Shown piece by piece: positions 1,883 through 39,768 of a DNA stretch of 64,000 nucleotides; positions within the stretch are counted from its first letter, which is position 1, and each line of letters opens with the position of its first letter. The notes under the pieces were generated by a model. That model saw only the letters and a list, made by a program, of their open reading frames with translations. It searched no databases and had not been told where the DNA came from. The DNA comes from Candidatus Shapirobacteria bacterium (GTDB taxonomy: Bacteria; Patescibacteriota; Microgenomatia; UBA12405), in NCBI GenBank assembly GCA_041658955.1, contig JBAZZE010000003.1, positions 3,842-67,841 of the forward strand. The letters are read 5' to 3'. Both the position numbers and the translations under genes were made by a program.

Positions 1883-4800
1883 TTACCTAAAATTTACTCC
1901 ACTACCGTTGTAGACAGATTTTATTTGAGTTTCAGTTAGAGCGTAGTTGTAGACGCGAACATCATCGACTTGACCGTCAAGATAGCGGGGTGAGGCATTG
2001 TCTACCCGACCAATATAGAAATTGGCGTTATCAGTGTCGACTACTGAAACGATAGAAGAGGTTTGTTCGGTATTGAGTACTCCATTTTTGTAAAGTCGAA
2101 TATAGCTACCACCTTTGAAGACACCGCAGTAATGATCCCATTGGCCAGTAGTTACTAGACCAGTACTCCCTTCAACACGACCACTAGCGTCTGCTCCGGG
2201 GTCGACTGCGAAACTAACAGTATCACTACGCCCACTAAGGGCGGCACTATCATCGACCCAAAGAAGCCAACCGCCAAGGCTACCAAGATAGCGAGAGACG
2301 ATAGCACCATCGGTAGTAACTGAGGATGGGCGATATTTTAACCAGCTACAGACAGAGGCTTCAGTGGCTCCTTCGATGGTGGGAACTGTCATGCCAATGT
2401 TTATAGAGTCATCGGAGCCATCCAGACTGATAGAGGAATTCATCTTACCACTGGCACCATTGGTCCACGCCGCTGAAGTGCCAACAGAACAAGTGCCAGG
2501 AGTGGTTTGAGATCCTGAAGCACCAACGGTAAGAGTACCGTGATTGGCCAGACCACTCCAGTCAGCGATCTGGGTGCCCTGACATTCGTCCATTTTCCAC
2601 CAACCAGTTGGACCACCATGGTTGTAGTCGTAAGCTATTTGGGCTGGGGTACGGGCATAGTCATAGATTCGAACTTCATCAATAGCACCATTAAAATCAT
2701 CAACTAAGTAGCTGTTTCTGGCATTACCAATAGAGATGTCGTCGTTGTTGGCTATTGAACCAGTGGTTATATCATTACCGGTATTAACTAAAACTCCATC
2801 GACATAGAGATAAGCCTTGTCAGCAGAAAAATCTCTAACCCCGACGAGGTGATGCCACTGACCATTGTTTAATGGGGTTGGTCCGGTAACGTCAAAACCG
2901 GTAACACCATCTCTTAAAGTTATACCAGGTGTCCGTGTAGTCGCAGATAGGTAAAGTCTAAAAGGTGATGCACCACTATTTGTTCCATGTTTGGCCAACA
3001 AACTGTCAGTACTAGCACTAGTATCAGTAGTCTTGAACCAAGTTTCGACTGTATATGAGTTATTATTTCCAATGTCGGTAGTAGTTGTAGTTTCAGCAAA
3101 TCTGATGACACCGTCATTATTGTTAAAGTTAATACCAGAACCAAATTTTCCGAGAATCCAGGTATTAGTTCCTGTCCAGGTTGTACTATCGTTGTTATTG
3201 CCACTAGTATCTTTAGCGCTGGTACCAGCCTTTTCATCCAATTTCCAATTGGCTACTGGTGGACTACAGGGTGATGTGTCACCGGGGACACAGTAATCTA
3301 GACTAGTAGTGGTGGCACCGATAGTTTGATTTGATGAGCCAAAGGTGAAAGAGGAGTTTTGATTGAGGTCTGTTTTGATCTCGTCTTGACTTAGTTGATA
3401 GTTAAATAATTTGAAATCGTCAATCACACCTGAAAAATAGTTGGTGCTATTTTTACCAATGTTGATGGCACTACCAGTCACAGTGGTGCCGATACTGACA
3501 ACTACATGCTGCCAGGTATTATCGGTTAAAGTGCTGGTACTAATACCGTTTATGCTAATAGTGGGCGAGGTAAAACCAGAAGCAAAAAGAGTGTTCCCAG
3601 TGGCGCCAATAGCTACAGTCGGACTAAGGGAAAAGAAGTGGTTGTTGGTTATTCCACTGGGTTTTATCCAAAAGGATACGGACTGAATATTATTTACGGT
3701 GGTACCAACACTAAGATAATCGTTGGCAGAAAAACTGAGTCCTTTATTGTTTTTTCCATCGACCCACGAAGGGGATGAATTACCAGTGGCCAAAGTCCCG
3801 TTTACAGTGCCACCTATACCCCAATTACTGGTGGTTGAGCCGTTACTTTCATCAAACTTGTAATAGATAGCCGGTTTACCGTTGCGTGGTGAGGTATTGG
3901 AATCACCCTGCATGTCTTGAAGAACTTGTTCTTGGGTGCGGGCGTAATTGTAAAGTTTGACATCGTCGATTTTGCCGTCAAAGTCAAAGGAGGCACTGTT
4001 GTTGACGGTGCCAATATAAGTACTGTCAGGTGATGAGATACCAACGGAATAATATGCCGAAATATCTTGTGACTCAATTAGCTTTCCGTCCTGATAAATT
4101 TTGGCTGTACCATTTCGCGAAGCGATAGAACAAATGTAATACCAGTTACCAACTGTTAGGGGGTTGCTTTGAATTTTAACTGTGGTTGCTCCAAGATCCA
4201 ACATAAATTCCATCTGACTCAAGGCATCCCATCGGAGTTCGTAGCCTAAATTTGGAGAGGTATTGTCACGGTGTTCAAAAGCACCGGCAAACTCTGGACC
4301 GGTGGTTTCTGGGTTTAGCCATAGACAGACGGAAAAATCGTTTTTAACCATATCGTGCTCATCACTATCAGGAATGTTGACCCATTGATTACTGCTACTT
4401 TCAAAATCGAGGGCAGATCCAACCTTGCCAGTTATCCAAGTTGGTGAACCGTTAAAAGAAGAGCTGTTGTGACTTTTACCACTACTATCATAGGCGGTGG
4501 TTCCACTTTTTTCATCAAACTTCCAATAGCCAACTGGACCTGGAGCGTAGTTATAGAGATTTTTGACATCAGTAGAGGAAAGCGCGCGGTTATAGAGTTT
4601 GACCTCATCAATAGTTCCTTTGAAGTAATGTCCGGGGTCGGTGGCGTGATGGGTACCAATTCCCCAAGTGCTTGCCTCAGCAGTCCAGTTGCCAGTAGTA
4701 ACATTGCAAGTATTACTTAAAACACCATTAATATAGACTTTTTGAGTTTTGCCATCGGTTGTTCCAATGAGGTGATACCAGGTGTTGGCGGCAAGAGAAG

Positions 4801-34809: not shown

Positions 34810-35040
34810 ATGTTCTTCGATGAGGTTAGGGCAACCCAGTTTAGATTGGAGGCATACTTTAAGGGTGAATTAGTAGCATTGAGAGTACGGGGGAGTAGTG
34901 GATGGAAAAGTGTACCCTTAGAAAGACCGGTGTCTGATCAGGAAATGGTGTGGAAACAAGCGAGTTTACCAGAACCAAGAAAAGCTACAGCAAAACCCAG
35001 ACCCGAGCCGGAATATGTAGATTTTAAGGACGCGCCCTAA
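34810..35040 (+). CDS. Small hypothetical protein (doubtful)
   Basis: 76-aa ORF directly after the permease. No motif recognised. It is convergent with the downstream gene. Confidence 0.2.
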   Translation: MFFDEVRATQFRLEAYFKGELVALRVRGSSGWKSVPLERPVSDQEMVWKQASLPEPRKATAKPRPEPEYVDFKDAP

Positions 35041-35042
35041 GA

Positions 35043-36014
35043 TTATTTTACAGAGTTGTAGATTTGGCGGGATATATCGCTGATAGTCTTGGTTAGTACA
35101 TTGAAATTGTTACCTCGGGTCATGATACAGACTAAGTATGGTTTTGCGGGAAGATAAACTATGCCACAATCATGAAGTTGCTTAACACCAGTTTCATTGT
35201 AACTACGTTCGCCATATTTGTGAGCAATACTGACTGATGGATCAACACCAGCAGCGAGAGCGTCTTTATATTGACTTTGACTAAGAATATTGAGGGCTAT
35301 TTCAGAATACTTGGGATTAAGATATGAAGCATTGTAGAGAATCCGGAAAAATGATGCATATGATTTGACGGAAAGAATATCACCGTTGGGGTTGGTAAAT
35401 CCAAGACTGATGTCGACCCCTAGGTCAGCGAAGACTTTGACCAAAAATTGGTTATCAATATTGGCAAGTAACAAATCGTAAGCCTGGTTATCAGATTGAA
35501 CTATTAAATTGTTAATCATCTGACTAACAGTATATTTTTGATTTGGGACCATTGTAGTTTTTGGAGCGATATTTTGGGCATATTCTGATGCTGAAGGTGT
35601 AGCAATAAGTTCTTTTTCGAGAATTGAAGGGTCAGTTTCAGCCATTTTAAAATAGGCGATCATTAGGGGAACTTTTATCAAACTTGCTGGGGAAAAAAGC
35701 TCATTTTGGTTGATACCAAACCAAGGTCCATTGTTCATATCCCGGTAATAGACAGAGACGTGAGAAAGTTCTTTGGATTTTACTTTTTGATCGATATATT
35801 GGTTAAGTTTGTTGCGGAGCTGATCAAGGTTGGTATCAGTACTAACAGCATCGGTATCACATTCGAGTAAAGGGTTGATATATTTGTAACCAGCTGGGAG
35901 TCGGGATTCGGTGAATAGATTTAATTTATTAGGTGTTTTGGAGATTGATGCAGATAGAAAACCGGCAACGTAAATGACAATTCCTAAAAATAAGAATAAG
36001 GCCACTTTCTTCAT
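35043..36014 (-). CDS. Class A beta-lactamase-like serine hydrolase (secreted/anchored)
   Basis: Signal/TM. SxxK at FSPASLIKV. SDN at VQSDNQAYDLL. K[TS]G-like HKYGE region. Overall length is ~300 aa as in Beta-lactamase2. Confidence 0.55.
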   Translation of the reverse strand: MKKVALFLFLGIVIYVAGFLSASISKTPNKLNLFTESRLPAGYKYINPLLECDTDAVSTDTNLDQLRNKLNQYIDQKVKSKELSHVSVYYRDMNNGPWFGINQNELFSPASLIKVPLMIAYFKMAETDPSILEKELIATPSASEYAQNIAPKTTMVPNQKYTVSQMINNLIVQSDNQAYDLLLANIDNQFLVKVFADLGVDISLGFTNPNGDILSVKSYASFFRILYNASYLNPKYSEIALNILSQSQYKDALAAGVDPSVSIAHKYGERSYNETGVKQLHDCGIVYLPAKPYLVCIMTRGNNFNVLTKTISDISRQIYNSVK

Positions 36015-36053
36015 TATGCCTGTAAGTATAAACGATTGTGATAGAATAGGGAA

Positions 36054-36089
36054 ATGAAAATGTTATCTGTTTCCCTACTTCTTAGCTAA
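36054..36089 (+). CDS. Candidate Leu-rich leader peptide MKMLSVSLLLS (attenuator ORF upstream of leuS)
   Basis: ATG AAA ATG TTA TCT GTT TCC CTA CTT CTT AGC TAA. Four of eleven codons are Leu, with three consecutive Leu codons before the stop. AGGGA lies 3 nt upstream of the ATG. It is followed immediately by alternative GGGGG/CCCCC and GCCCCC/GGGGC+U7 hairpins. Confidence 0.4.
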   Translation: MKMLSVSLLLS

Positions 36090-36096
36090 TTTTTTT

Positions 36097-36135
36097 GGGG
36101 GAACTGTAATGGCCCCCATGAGGGGCTTTTTTTAT
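36097..36135 (+). promoter_or_regulatory. Antiterminator/terminator pair of the leuS leader (intrinsic terminator GCCCCCatgaGGGGC + TTTTTTT)
   Basis: Sequence: TTTTTTTGGGGGaactgtaatgGCCCCCatgaGGGGCTTTTTTT. GGGGG (36097-36101) can pair with CCCCC (36112-36116) as an antiterminator. The competing hairpin GCCCCC(36111-36116)/GGGGC(36121-36125) is followed by U7, which is the terminator. Confidence 0.5.
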
Positions 36136-36377
36136 ATATATGAGCATTCAAAAACTAGTTGAACTTAGATGTGAGAATTGTGGTGGGGTGGGGATTGCTG
36201 AAGCTGGTCAGATAGGGGCATTGCGGACTAGAGTAGCTGGAAGCCACTTGGGTCATCGATTGAGTGAAGTACCTTATGTAGCAGCGACTGATGATGCTCA
36301 ACTAGCAGCGACAACTATTGTCAGCCGTCGATCTGGTATATTTGTTTATAGTTCTAGTAATCCAAGTTAAATTGACT

Positions 36378-38822
36378 ATGGAAGAAATCAAAAAGTTTAA
36401 AACTATTGAAGATAAGTGGATAAAATGGTGGGAAGATCACAAAGATCTGTATCGGGCTGTCGATGATTCGTCAAAAGAAAAAAAATACGTCTTGGTAGAG
36501 TTTCCTTACCCAAGTGGTTCAGGACTACATGTGGGGCATGCTTTTTCCTTTACGGGAGGGGATGTCCAGGCTCGGTTTAAACGAATGCAAGGCTATAATG
36601 TTCTGTTTCCCATGGGATGGGATGCTTTTGGGTTACCAACTGAAAATTACGCGATTAAGATGAAGAGGAAGCCACAAGAGGTAACCAAAGAGAATACAGA
36701 TGTATTCAAGAGCCAGATGAAGCAATTGGCTTTTTCATTTGATTGGAGTCGAGAAGTAAACACAACTGATCCGACTTATTACAAATGGACTCAGTGGATA
36801 TTTGTTCAACTATTTAAGAAAAATCTTGCCTACAAACAGGAAATGCCAATAAACTGGTGTCCGTCATGTAAGATAGGCCTGGCTAACGAAGAAGTATTGA
36901 ATGGGAAATGTGAGCGCTGTGGTACCGAAGTGAGCCGGAGAAATATATCACAGTGGGTGGTTAAGATTACTGATTATGCCGATAGGTTGGCAATGGGCTT
37001 AAAAGACACTAATTTTATTGATAAGGTTAAAACAGCTCAGGTTAACTGGATTGGGAAAAGCGAAGGAGCCAAGATAAGGTTCGCAGTAAAGGACAGAAAG
37101 GAGACTTTGGAAGTGTTTACGACTCGACCGGACACGCTTTATGGAGCGACTTTTATGGTAATAAGTCCAGAACATAAGCTGGCTGTTGATCTAGCTGAAT
37201 CTAACAAAGATATCAAAGACTATCTAAATGAAACCAGAAAAAAGAGTGACATGGAGAGAACTGATCTTAATAAGGATAAAACAGGCGTATTTTCTGGTCT
37301 TTATGCGATTAATCCGGTGAATGATAAGGCAATACCGATTTGGATATCTGACTTTGTATTAGCTAGTTATGGAACAGGAGCGATTATGTCAGTGCCAGCT
37401 CATGATGAGCGTGATAATGCTTTTGCTAAGAAATTTGGCTTGGAAATTATACAAGTGATCAAACCCAATGAAGTATCAGAAGCAGATAAGCCAGAGACTG
37501 ATTGCTATGTTGGTCCTGGAACAATGATAAATTCAGGTGACTTGGATGGGATGGAGTGGTCGGAGGCAAAAGCAAAGATGATTGAAAGGTTGAAAAAGAT
37601 AGGTATTGGAGAAGCATCAAATAGTTATCATTTGAGGGACTGGATATTTAGCCGGCAACACTACTGGGGTGAGCCTATTCCGATGGTTGATTGCCCTAAG
37701 TGTGGTTGGGTGCCAGAAAAAGAGGAAAACTTACCAATCGTACTACCAGAGGTAGAAGCTTATGAACCGACGGATGATGGGTTGAGTCCACTATCTAGAA
37801 TCGAAAGTTTTGTGAATTGTAAGTGTCCTGAGTGTGGTGGAGATGCTAAAAGAGAAACGGATACCATGCCAAACTGGGCTGGATCAGATTGGTACTTTAT
37901 GAGATATATGGATCCAGATAATGCTACTAAATTGGTAGACTTTGATCTATTAAAAAAGTGGGGTCCAGTCGATATTTACATCGGTGGAGATGAACATAAC
38001 ACGCTTCATTTGCTATATTCACGATTTATTTATCAGTTTTTGTACGACTTAGGAATATTCCCTAAAGAGTTGCCAGAGCCATACTACAGAAGAGTATCTC
38101 ACGGAGTTATTTTGGGACCTGACAATCAGAGAATGAGTAAATCGAAAGGGAACGTGATTGTGCCAGAAACGGTGGCTGATATGTATGGTGTAGATGTGGT
38201 TCGAATGTATCTAATGTTCATGGGACCGTTTGAGGGGACGATGGCTTGGAACGAAAAGACACTGATGGGAGTCAAGAGGTTTTTAGATAGGTTTGAAAAG
38301 TACGTTATTAAGCAGAGCCAGAGTAATTCTGATAGCAGTAGTGTTGTTAAAGTGATAATAAATAAGTTAGTTGATGGAGTAACTAAGGACTTGGAGAACT
38401 TTGGTTACAATACAGCCATAGCGAAGTGTATGGGGGCTTTGAACGAATTAGAGAAGTCGGAATCAATTTCTGCTGATGATTTATCCAAGTTAGTTAGAGT
38501 AGTGGCTCCACTGGCACCTTATATGGCCGAGGAACTATGGTCCAACATAAATAGAGATACTGGAGAGTATAGCTCAGTTCATGCATCGAGCTGGCCAGTC
38601 GTAGAAGAGCAATACTTAGTAAGCGATGAGGTCACTGTGGTAGTGGCTATCAATGGCAAATTAAGAGATCAACTGGTAGTTGATAGAGAAAAGGCTAATG
38701 ATGAAAAAGCGATGTTGGAGCTAGCAAGGGGATCAGAGAAAATCAAAGCATGGCTTGTAGGCAAACAAATAGTTAAGGAGATCTTTGTACCAGGCCGAAT
38801 GGTGAACATTGTTGTTGCTTAG
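36378..38822 (+). CDS. leuS: Leucyl-tRNA synthetase
   Basis: HIGH motif (GLHVGHAF). KMSKS (RMSKSKGN). CP1 editing and Zn-binding CxxC motifs. The start was chosen at MEEIKKFKTIEDKW (the track ORF starts 60 nt earlier in the leader). Confidence 0.9.
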   Translation: MEEIKKFKTIEDKWIKWWEDHKDLYRAVDDSSKEKKYVLVEFPYPSGSGLHVGHAFSFTGGDVQARFKRMQGYNVLFPMGWDAFGLPTENYAIKMKRKPQEVTKENTDVFKSQMKQLAFSFDWSREVNTTDPTYYKWTQWIFVQLFKKNLAYKQEMPINWCPSCKIGLANEEVLNGKCERCGTEVSRRNISQWVVKITDYADRLAMGLKDTNFIDKVKTAQVNWIGKSEGAKIRFAVKDRKETLEVFTTRPDTLYGATFMVISPEHKLAVDLAESNKDIKDYLNETRKKSDMERTDLNKDKTGVFSGLYAINPVNDKAIPIWISDFVLASYGTGAIMSVPAHDERDNAFAKKFGLEIIQVIKPNEVSEADKPETDCYVGPGTMINSGDLDGMEWSEAKAKMIERLKKIGIGEASNSYHLRDWIFSRQHYWGEPIPMVDCPKCGWVPEKEENLPIVLPEVEAYEPTDDGLSPLSRIESFVNCKCPECGGDAKRETDTMPNWAGSDWYFMRYMDPDNATKLVDFDLLKKWGPVDIYIGGDEHNTLHLLYSRFIYQFLYDLGIFPKELPEPYYRRVSHGVILGPDNQRMSKSKGNVIVPETVADMYGVDVVRMYLMFMGPFEGTMAWNEKTLMGVKRFLDRFEKYVIKQSQSNSDSSSVVKVIINKLVDGVTKDLENFGYNTAIAKCMGALNELEKSESISADDLSKLVRVVAPLAPYMAEELWSNINRDTGEYSSVHASSWPVVEEQYLVSDEVTVVVAINGKLRDQLVVDREKANDEKAMLELARGSEKIKAWLVGKQIVKEIFVPGRMVNIVVA

Positions 38823-39584: not shown

Positions 39585-39656
39585 GTATCCCCAGGCAGAA
39601 TCGAACTGCCATTTAAGGTTTAGGAAACCTCCGTTCTATCCATTGAACTATAGGGA
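39585..39656 (-). tRNA. tRNA-Arg (anticodon CCT)
   Basis: The reverse complement folds as a cloverleaf. Acceptor GTCCCTA/TGGGGAT. D-arm GTTC-AATGGATA-GAAC. Anticodon stem GAGGT/ACCTT with loop TTCCTAA (anticodon CCT). T-arm GGCAG-TTCGATT-CTGCC. Discriminator A. No encoded CCA. Confidence 0.8.
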
Positions 39657-39694
39657 CAGGCAAACTCAACCATATGAAAATATGGTGGAATTTG

Positions 39695-39768
39695 TCGGGG
39701 ATACTGGATTCGAACCAGCAACCTCACGATCCCGAACCGTGCGCGCTAGCCAATTGCGCCAATCCCCG
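39695..39768 (-). tRNA. tRNA-Pro (anticodon CGG)
   Basis: Reverse complement. Acceptor CGGGGAT/ATCCCCG. D-arm GCGC-AATTGGCTA-GCGC. Anticodon stem CACGG/TCGTG with loop TTCGGGA (anticodon CGG, G37). T-arm GCTGG-TTCGAAT-CCAGT. Discriminator A. Confidence 0.8.

Follow-up and report, generated by a model that had tools for sequence, protein, structure and literature searches.

The locus described here raises the question of why a leucyl-tRNA synthetase (LeuRS) gene, leuS, should be preceded by a very short open reading frame (ORF) that carries a run of leucine codons and is followed at once by G- and C-rich runs and an intrinsic terminator. It lies in a 64,000-nucleotide (nt) stretch of Candidatus Shapirobacteria DNA (hereafter the window, to which all coordinates refer unless another locus is named), and the novelty of the case would lie in part in its host, as gene regulation in uncultured bacteria of the Candidate Phyla Radiation (CPR, or Patescibacteria) is little known. 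Our comparative and folding analysis makes it probable that the leader works as a transcription attenuator of the trp/leu/pheST type, mediated by the ribosome and responsive to leucine, which controls leuS and, in this lineage, an interposed gene for a 76-amino-acid (aa) protein, ORF76.

The putatively regulated gene, leuS (36378-38822, plus strand), encodes an 814-aa enzyme with Pfam matches to tRNA-synt_1, the leucyl-tRNA synthetase editing domain and Anticodon_1, and its product is 100% identical to a protein named by NCBI as the leucine--tRNA ligase of Candidatus Shapirobacteria. The gene upstream, assigned by Pfam to the beta-lactamase family (35043-36014), lies in divergent orientation on the minus strand and leaves 363 nt of intergenic space before leuS, so that the terminator at 36111-36133 ends no upstream gene. 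By the criteria of this analysis, the same terminator is the sole terminator-like site on the plus strand of the window.

Architecture of the leuS leader

The leader, all on the plus strand, opens with an extended -10 promoter, TGATAGAAT (TGn followed by TAGAAT; 36039-36047), and an 11-codon ORF with its TAA stop (36054-36089) that reads ATG AAA ATG TTA TCT GTT TCC CTA CTT CTT AGC TAA and encodes MKMLSVSLLLS, with the putative regulatory Leu codons CTA CTT CTT at 36075-36083. Both the promoter element and a mini-ORF with three consecutive Leu codons had been recognized in a preliminary description of the locus, which had however placed the mini-ORF 100-290 nt upstream of leuS; the actual distance is ~290-325 nt. 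The start codon lies 6 nt past the end of the -10 element (36047 to the ATG at 36054), and TGnTAnAAT occupies the same place in all ten leaders that we compared, 5-7 nt ahead of an ATG or GTG. From this promoter geometry the leader transcript is predicted to start at ~36054, and because the start codon then sits at the predicted 5' end of the transcript the mini-ORF is most likely leaderless. The wider gene complement of the window is consistent with such a start: TAnnnT ends 5-6 nt ahead of the start codon in 18 of 45 genes (longest-ORF starts), against about 1.5 genes per other offset, and a Shine-Dalgarno-like motif precedes only 4 of the 45, so that first genes in this genome appear to be expressed mainly from leaderless mRNAs. 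The use of GTG as start codon in two of the ten leaders agrees with the AUG/GUG start rule reported for mycobacterial leaderless mRNAs (PMC4633059; bioRxiv 10.1101/834739).

Four segments within and behind the mini-ORF account for the alternative helices. Segment 1, GUUUCCCUA (36069-36077), covers codons 6-8 and forms the anti-antiterminator in minimum free energy (MFE) folds and in counts of its pairs with segment 2. A U7 tract directly after the stop codon (36090-36096) leads into segment 2, UGGGGGAAC (36096-36104), which contains the G-run GGGGG (36097-36101) and supplies the 5' arm of the antiterminator in constrained folds and pair counts. Segment 3, GGCCCCCA (36111-36118), is common to the antiterminator, in which it pairs with segment 2, and to the terminator, in which it pairs with segment 4, as judged from duplex energies and pair counts. 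Segment 4 (36122-36133; terminator scan and pair counts) consists of GGGGCU and a U7 tract (36127-36133), and the terminator scan returned the hairpin GGCCCCC-ATGA-GGGGCT with its T-run at 36111-36127. The preliminary description had located GGGGG correctly and set CCCCC, GCCCCC and GGGGC each one base too low; GGCCCCC lies at 36111-36117, GCCCCC at 36112-36117, CCCCC at 36113-36117 and GGGGC at 36122-36126. Its three-segment design was supported for the 2:3 and 3:4 pairings and incomplete in lacking the helix between segments 1 and 2, which in the MFE structure of the free leader RNA joins 36069-36077 to 36096-36104; the leaderless start and ORF76 (36140-36370) were likewise absent from it. 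Since the 1:2 helix is found together with the terminator in the MFE structure of the free RNA in all ten leaders, the element has the full 1:2 / 2:3 / 3:4 layout of a four-segment attenuator. A hairpin at 36043-36082 that appeared in the first fold was discounted, since the predicted transcript would begin downstream of the hairpin's 5' arm, AGGGAAA.

Constrained folding, which had been proposed as a check on the switch, was carried out with a ribosome footprint of established size imposed on the RNA (positions -15 to +12 relative to the first base in the A site). With the ribosome on the stop codon the terminator alone remained in all ten leaders, and with the A site at the opening codon of the Leu run the antiterminator became the optimum in seven of them. 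The spacing in the window fits these outcomes, as a ribosome at UAA (36087) extends to ~36099 and partly covers the G-run, which begins 7 nt after the stop codon, whereas one at the final Leu codon (36081) extends to ~36093 and leaves the G-run free. The competing structures are similar in stability, at -11.2 kcal/mol for the antiterminator and -10.7 kcal/mol for the terminator in the window, and at -11.2 to -16.3 versus -10.7 to -15.3 kcal/mol across the ten leaders.

The mechanism that these elements suggest would begin with RNA polymerase starting ~7 nt past the extended -10 element, so that the transcript would begin at or next to the AUG of the 11-codon ORF, onto which a ribosome would load without a leader and trail the polymerase. 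When Leu-tRNA(Leu) is plentiful, this ribosome would reach the UAA and place its leading edge over the first Gs of segment 2; with segment 2 covered, the CCCCC of segment 3 would pair with the GGGGC of segment 4, and with the U7 tract this would bring about termination at ~36133. Under a shortage of charged tRNA(Leu), the ribosome would stall at CUA-CUU-CUU and mask segment 1, and the freed segment 2 would pair with segment 3 as the antiterminator, allowing the polymerase to continue into ORF76 and leuS and more LeuRS to be made. In the absence of any translation, segment 1 would pair with segment 2 and the terminator would again form. As a CPR bacterium, the organism is expected to make no leucine itself, and if this mechanism is correct, a cell dependent on imported amino acids would be monitoring the charging of its tRNA(Leu) to adjust the corresponding synthetase. 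A working attenuator would also be indirect evidence for leaderless initiation and for coupled transcription and translation in CPR bacteria, implying that the two processes are tightly coupled in ultra-small cells, and would offer a compact natural case of attenuator origin.

Conservation and covariation in ten lineages

The comparative evidence comes from leuS loci gathered by a LeuS scan of genome contigs, by a DNA pattern scan of metagenomes, and from contigs encoding the closest LeuS homologues; the nearest species-level genomes are Shapirobacteria metagenome-assembled genomes with 56-75% LeuS identity. The leader module was found directly upstream of leuS in ten distinct lineages, nine of them besides the window, conservation of a Leu-rich mini-ORF and terminator at this place in relatives being one of the checks that the preliminary description had proposed. 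Nine of the ten came from leuS-centred searches. The tenth, L087, came from the metagenome pattern TTGGGGGN{8,16}GGCCCCCANGNGGGG, which specifies a G-run, a C-run and a G-run and makes no use of leuS; 26 of its 27 matches were GC-rich chance matches and the remaining one was this true leader, with the promoter, an 11-codon ORF containing CTC CTT CTT, and leuS downstream.

The leader ORFs are 11-13 codons long in all ten lineages and share a Leu run near the C-terminus as the sole conserved feature of the peptide. The MKMLSVSLLLS of the window corresponds to MKMLIISLLLS in its closest relative (L108, L109 and L110; 91% LeuS identity), MKMLTVSLLLS in L111 (77% LeuS identity), MKLLIVSLLLN in L001, xNIKFNSLLLM in L025, MIRKLTGLLLT in L087, xNIKFNSLLLLM in L113, MIVGRQNSLVLLA in L115, MKSMSKKALLLLC in L116 and MFTLTLLLLVA in L017, the run being LLL or LLLL in nine leaders and LVLL in one. 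The stop codon falls 2-7 nt ahead of the G-rich segment 2 in every case and is followed by the C-rich segment, the second G-rich segment and the U-tract. From the U-tract to the leuS start the distance is ~15-25 nt in L001, L025, L113, L115, L116 and L017, and ~85-110 nt in L111 and L087. Gene callers can run over such leaders, as illustrated by the LeuS of L001, which is recorded as an 874-aa protein (P0031).

The three pairing partners covary in their base changes. In leaders of the window type, segment 2 is GGGGG, segment 3 CCCCC and segment 4 GGGG(C/G); the corresponding segments are GGAGGG, CCCUCC and GGAGGG in L113, GGGAGG, CCUCCC and GGGAGG in L115 and L116, and GGGAGGGG, CCCCGCC and GGCGGG in L017. 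The C-to-U changes within segment 3 of L113, L115 and L116 are thus matched in both segment 2 and segment 4, and such a response from both partners is expected if segment 3 takes part in two mutually exclusive helices. When segments were swapped between types, cognate 2:3 and 3:4 duplexes reached -11 to -14 kcal/mol and cross-type duplexes mostly -6 to -9 kcal/mol.

These pairings were quantified in a segment alignment with constant linkers, hand-registered from each sequence's own fold; a plain MAFFT alignment of the leaders and an N-padded version of it had been dropped, the helices being out of register in both. In the segment alignment the terminator helix is paired in 100% of cells, with double-sided changes at four of its six pairs, and the antiterminator helix keeps five core pairs and has three double-sided changes, with C-G to U-A changes at the same segment 3 bases. 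The segment 1:2 helix is paired in 84% of cells, with both sides changed in five of nine pairs. In 500 shuffles, neither the percentage paired nor the covariation score ever came up to the observed value for any of the three helices. Ten leaders with compensatory changes in both competing helices therefore support the proposal, made in the preliminary description, of an antiterminator/terminator switch governed by translation of Leu codons ahead of leuS.

The distribution of the module is patchy. In a scan of the relevant loci, a terminator was found upstream of leuS only where a Leu mini-ORF exists, and none was seen at 21 further Shapirobacteria-like loci or at 12 Chloroflexi loci; the latter carry the Anaerolineae-type leuS that is closest to the Shapirobacteria enzyme (L019, L020, L022 and nine others) and have no terminator in the 450 nt upstream. 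In relatives that lack the module, the ATG of leuS itself lies 5-6 nt after TAAAAT, so that the module seems either to have entered the space between leuS and an ancestral leaderless promoter or to have been lost from it. Close relatives that carry the ~80-nt module, set beside others in which leuS sits directly at a leaderless promoter, provide a clean comparative series for the gain and loss of such a module.

Alternative accounts and the surroundings of leuS

Several observations weigh against an attenuator at this locus and have to be set beside the evidence above. Of the leuS loci of Shapirobacteria type that were examined, only about a third have the element, leuS itself has no Shine-Dalgarno sequence, and the start of transcription, the translation of the mini-ORF and the read-through into leuS are all predictions from sequence features. 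The hand registration of the segment alignment favours the structures under test. Furthermore, L108, L113 and L017 keep the terminator as the thermodynamic optimum even with a ribosome on the Leu codons, so that in these leaders the switch would have to be kinetic, with the 2:3 helix forming before segment 4 is transcribed. The remaining points on this side, which concern the placement of the Leu codons and a hexamer close to leuS, each lend themselves to a different account of the locus.

The Leu codons lie within a pyrimidine-rich segment that must also pair with the G-rich segment 2, so that the demands of structure, and not of coding, may account for some of their conservation. This opens the way to an RNA switch that works by structure only, in which the mini-ORF is untranslated, segment 1 is kept for its pairing with segment 2, and a trans-acting factor, such as LeuRS or uncharged tRNA(Leu), decides the outcome. 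The pairing of segments 1 and 2 in all ten leaders is compatible with such a switch, as is the fact that the pyrimidine run reads as CUU/CUC codons in one of three frames, and autoregulatory aminoacyl-tRNA synthetase (aaRS) leaders that bind the enzyme are known, that of E. coli thrS being an example. Against such a switch, each of the ten leaders combines a start codon at the leaderless position with a Leu frame, an in-frame stop 1-3 codons further on and a fixed distance to segment 2. In the four closest leaders (the window, L108, L111 and L001) the substitutions within the Leu run are confined to wobble positions (CTA/CTC/CTT; CTT/CTC; CTT/CTA). The leader is also only ~80 nt long with neither a T-box nor another Rfam match, and it has no conserved unpaired motif left over as a ligand site. 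We consider a switch of this kind improbable.

The hexamer at issue resembles a -10 element and lies 5-7 nt ahead of the leuS ATG in about six of the ten loci. In the window (36365-36377), L108 (2984-3000) and L001 (~2985-3000) GTTAAATT is conserved 5 nt ahead of the ATG, and TAAAAT-like hexamers stand 5-7 nt ahead of leuS in L111, L025, L113 and L017. A hexamer so close to the start codon makes a second, unattenuated leuS promoter possible, and the leader could then be an independent small gene for an 11-aa peptide or a small RNA, with its own promoter and terminator, the terminator serving as an insulator and leuS being expressed from its own leaderless promoter. Such an arrangement would suit a genome in which leaderless expression appears to be the norm, and relatives without the element would express leuS from just such a promoter. 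It would leave unexplained, however, why the antiterminator covaries with the terminator, a feature without purpose for a plain terminator, and why the element is seen only ahead of leuS, even in the locus that was recovered by a search blind to leuS. The peptide is unconserved outside its Leu run, which fits a codon sensor and not a functional peptide. The TGn extension, present in the leader promoter in 10/10 cases, is also missing from most of the candidate second promoters, and the hexamer may be a remnant, or a weak second leaderless promoter downstream of the attenuator. An independent mini-gene therefore has, in our judgement, only a slim chance of being the correct account.

A chance pairing of a short ORF with a GC hairpin in an AT-rich intergenic region, to which the modest advantage of the single-sequence fold of 36036-36140 over its shuffles might point (z = -1.84, with 11 of 200 folding as well), is so improbable as to be effectively excluded by the comparative data, given an architecture kept in ten lineages with compensatory changes, the strict co-occurrence of terminator and Leu mini-ORF, the presence of only two CCCCC runs on the plus strand of the 64-kb window, and a probability of ~0.4% for LLL within ten random codons at the window's Leu codon frequency.

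With a Leu-responsive attenuator retained as the preferred reading, read-through transcripts in the window lineage would meet ORF76 before leuS. This orphan gene (MSIQKLVELRCENCGG...; 36140-36370, plus strand) lies between the terminator and leuS, with its stop 7 nt ahead of the leuS ATG, and is called as a gene in L108-L110. It is present only in the window and in that 91% relative and absent from L111 and L001; no Pfam family was found for it, tblastn and blastn returned no significant homologue in 80 leuS loci, and its sole cluster among 5.8 billion proteins is its own. Between the window and L108 there are 13 synonymous and 6 non-synonymous codon differences, third positions account for 13 of the 22 base changes, and the central part is nearly identical at the nucleotide level. 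Judged by these sequence comparisons, ORF76 is a real but orphan gene. The coding-type substitution pattern also led us to reject the GC-richer stretch at 36133-36385 as a structured leader RNA, which folds no better than its shuffles (z = +1.25). As a separate observation on this relative, the LeuS of L108-L110 is 896 aa long (3001-5691 in L108) against 814 aa in the window with the same start, which indicates an internal insertion of ~82 aa, and the best local alignment of the two proteins covers only 55% of the query.

Elsewhere in the window, the further 5' terminators comprise one in the leader of rplJ, which encodes L10, and others that end rplL and a small helix-turn-helix-like gene, and no codon-run mini-ORF was found at any of them. 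The L10 leader RNA (RF00557; 59781-59908, minus strand) scores 43.8 bits, just below the gathering score of 44 (E = 3.7e-6), and its intrinsic terminator (59814-59798) lies directly before rplJ (59779-59264, minus strand), making it a second terminator-containing 5' leader in the genome. A partial Pfam survey of the window found no other aaRS genes. Genes for tRNA-Arg(CCT) and tRNA-Pro(CGG) lie downstream of leuS on the opposite strand (39585-39768, minus), and tRNA matches in the same relation to leuS occur in L001 (two) and L108 (one). Another conserved ORF of 76 aa (34810-35040, plus strand), for which there is no Pfam family, is situated between an FtsX/MacB-type permease gene and the beta-lactamase-family gene; the gene calls of both L108 and L111 include it. 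The plus strand of the window carries 63 GGGGG runs against 2 CCCCC runs, and GC skew is positive across the whole of 35000-37500.

Comparison with known systems

Known RNA families do not include this leader. At gathering scores, Rfam found two tRNAs in the window and nothing at the leader, and a permissive scan of 35950-36450 gave sub-threshold matches only (Phe_leader, snoZ105 and P14). T-box (RF00230) had no match at its gathering score in the window or in eight Shapirobacteria loci and none at E<=10 in 35950-36450, so that the earlier statement that no T-box is present is borne out; the Rfam scan found none in the Chloroflexi leuS loci L019, L020 and L022 either. Firmicutes leuS loci (L034, L035 and L066), in contrast, have a T-box directly upstream of leuS at 119-148 bits. 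The Firmicutes T-boxes occupy the same position and serve the same goal, more read-through into leuS when tRNA(Leu) is uncharged, but sense the uncharged tRNA directly through an RNA of ~200 nt and without translation, whereas the Shapirobacteria leaders consist of ~80 nt with a mini-ORF.

The preliminary description had likened the element to E. coli pheM-pheST, and the likeness holds for the logic, as both are leader-peptide attenuators ahead of an aaRS gene or operon with cognate codons in the leader and a terminator/antiterminator switch. It does not extend to membership of the Rfam family: the Phe_leader (RF01859) match, at 19.9 bits (E = 0.79), falls short of the gathering score of 55 and rests mostly on 'AAUGAAAA' and the terminator, and no other Rfam leader family matched at E<=10 in 35950-36450. 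The pheM leader responds to Phe and not Leu, is led by a Shine-Dalgarno sequence and is longer. The window element is an analogue of pheM and no member of its family, and the leader family to which it belongs is absent from Rfam.

With the trp, leu, his and thr leaders of Proteobacteria the element shares the 1:2 / 2:3 / 3:4 logic, regulatory codons in segment 1, a stop codon just ahead of segment 2 and an intrinsic terminator as the default. Those leaders regulate biosynthetic operons, whereas the leader described here would regulate a tRNA synthetase, and it differs from them further in its length of only ~80 nt, its G/C helices of 5-6 base pairs and its probably leaderless mini-ORF. The polycysteine ORFs of mycobacteria are likewise short and leaderless, open with AUG or GUG at the 5' end and contain an abundance of one amino acid, and they are reported to act as amino-acid-responsive attenuators of downstream genes (bioRxiv 10.1101/834739; PMC4633059); the amino acid there is Cys rather than Leu and the targets are genes of cysteine metabolism.

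The mechanism itself is already known, and a leaderless leader with an LLL run ahead of leuS is documented in Streptomyces. A classical attenuator had already been predicted ahead of Streptomyces leuS in 2005 (Seliverstov et al., PMC1262725). In RNA sequencing of S. lividans TK24 (Droste et al. 2021, PMC8079986) the leader was seen as leuL2, which encodes a leaderless 12-aa peptide, MRAVRLLLSEPR, and has a hairpin and U-stretch behind it. By analogy of architecture this is the closest counterpart of the window leader, since both lie upstream of leuS, encode a short peptide (12 aa against 11 aa) with three consecutive Leu codons, lack a 5' untranslated leader as far as can be predicted here, and end in a hairpin and U-stretch with antiterminator/terminator alternatives. 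The two differ in phylum, high-GC Actinobacteria against low-GC CPR/Patescibacteria, in the position of the Leu run, which lies one codon before the stop in the window and four codons before it in leuL2, and in the orphan 76-aa gene interposed in the window. An independent origin of the two is likely. A search of 8 million papers returned none that brings together Patescibacteria, leader peptide and attenuation, and we lean, on balance, towards regarding this leader as the first ribosome-mediated attenuator described in CPR bacteria: a leaderless leader of ~80 nt that would sense the charging of Leu-tRNA to tune LeuRS, that would have arisen independently of Streptomyces leuL2, and whose patchy gain and loss among Shapirobacteria would have proceeded by insertion into the interval that separates the leuS start codon from its ancestral leaderless promoter.

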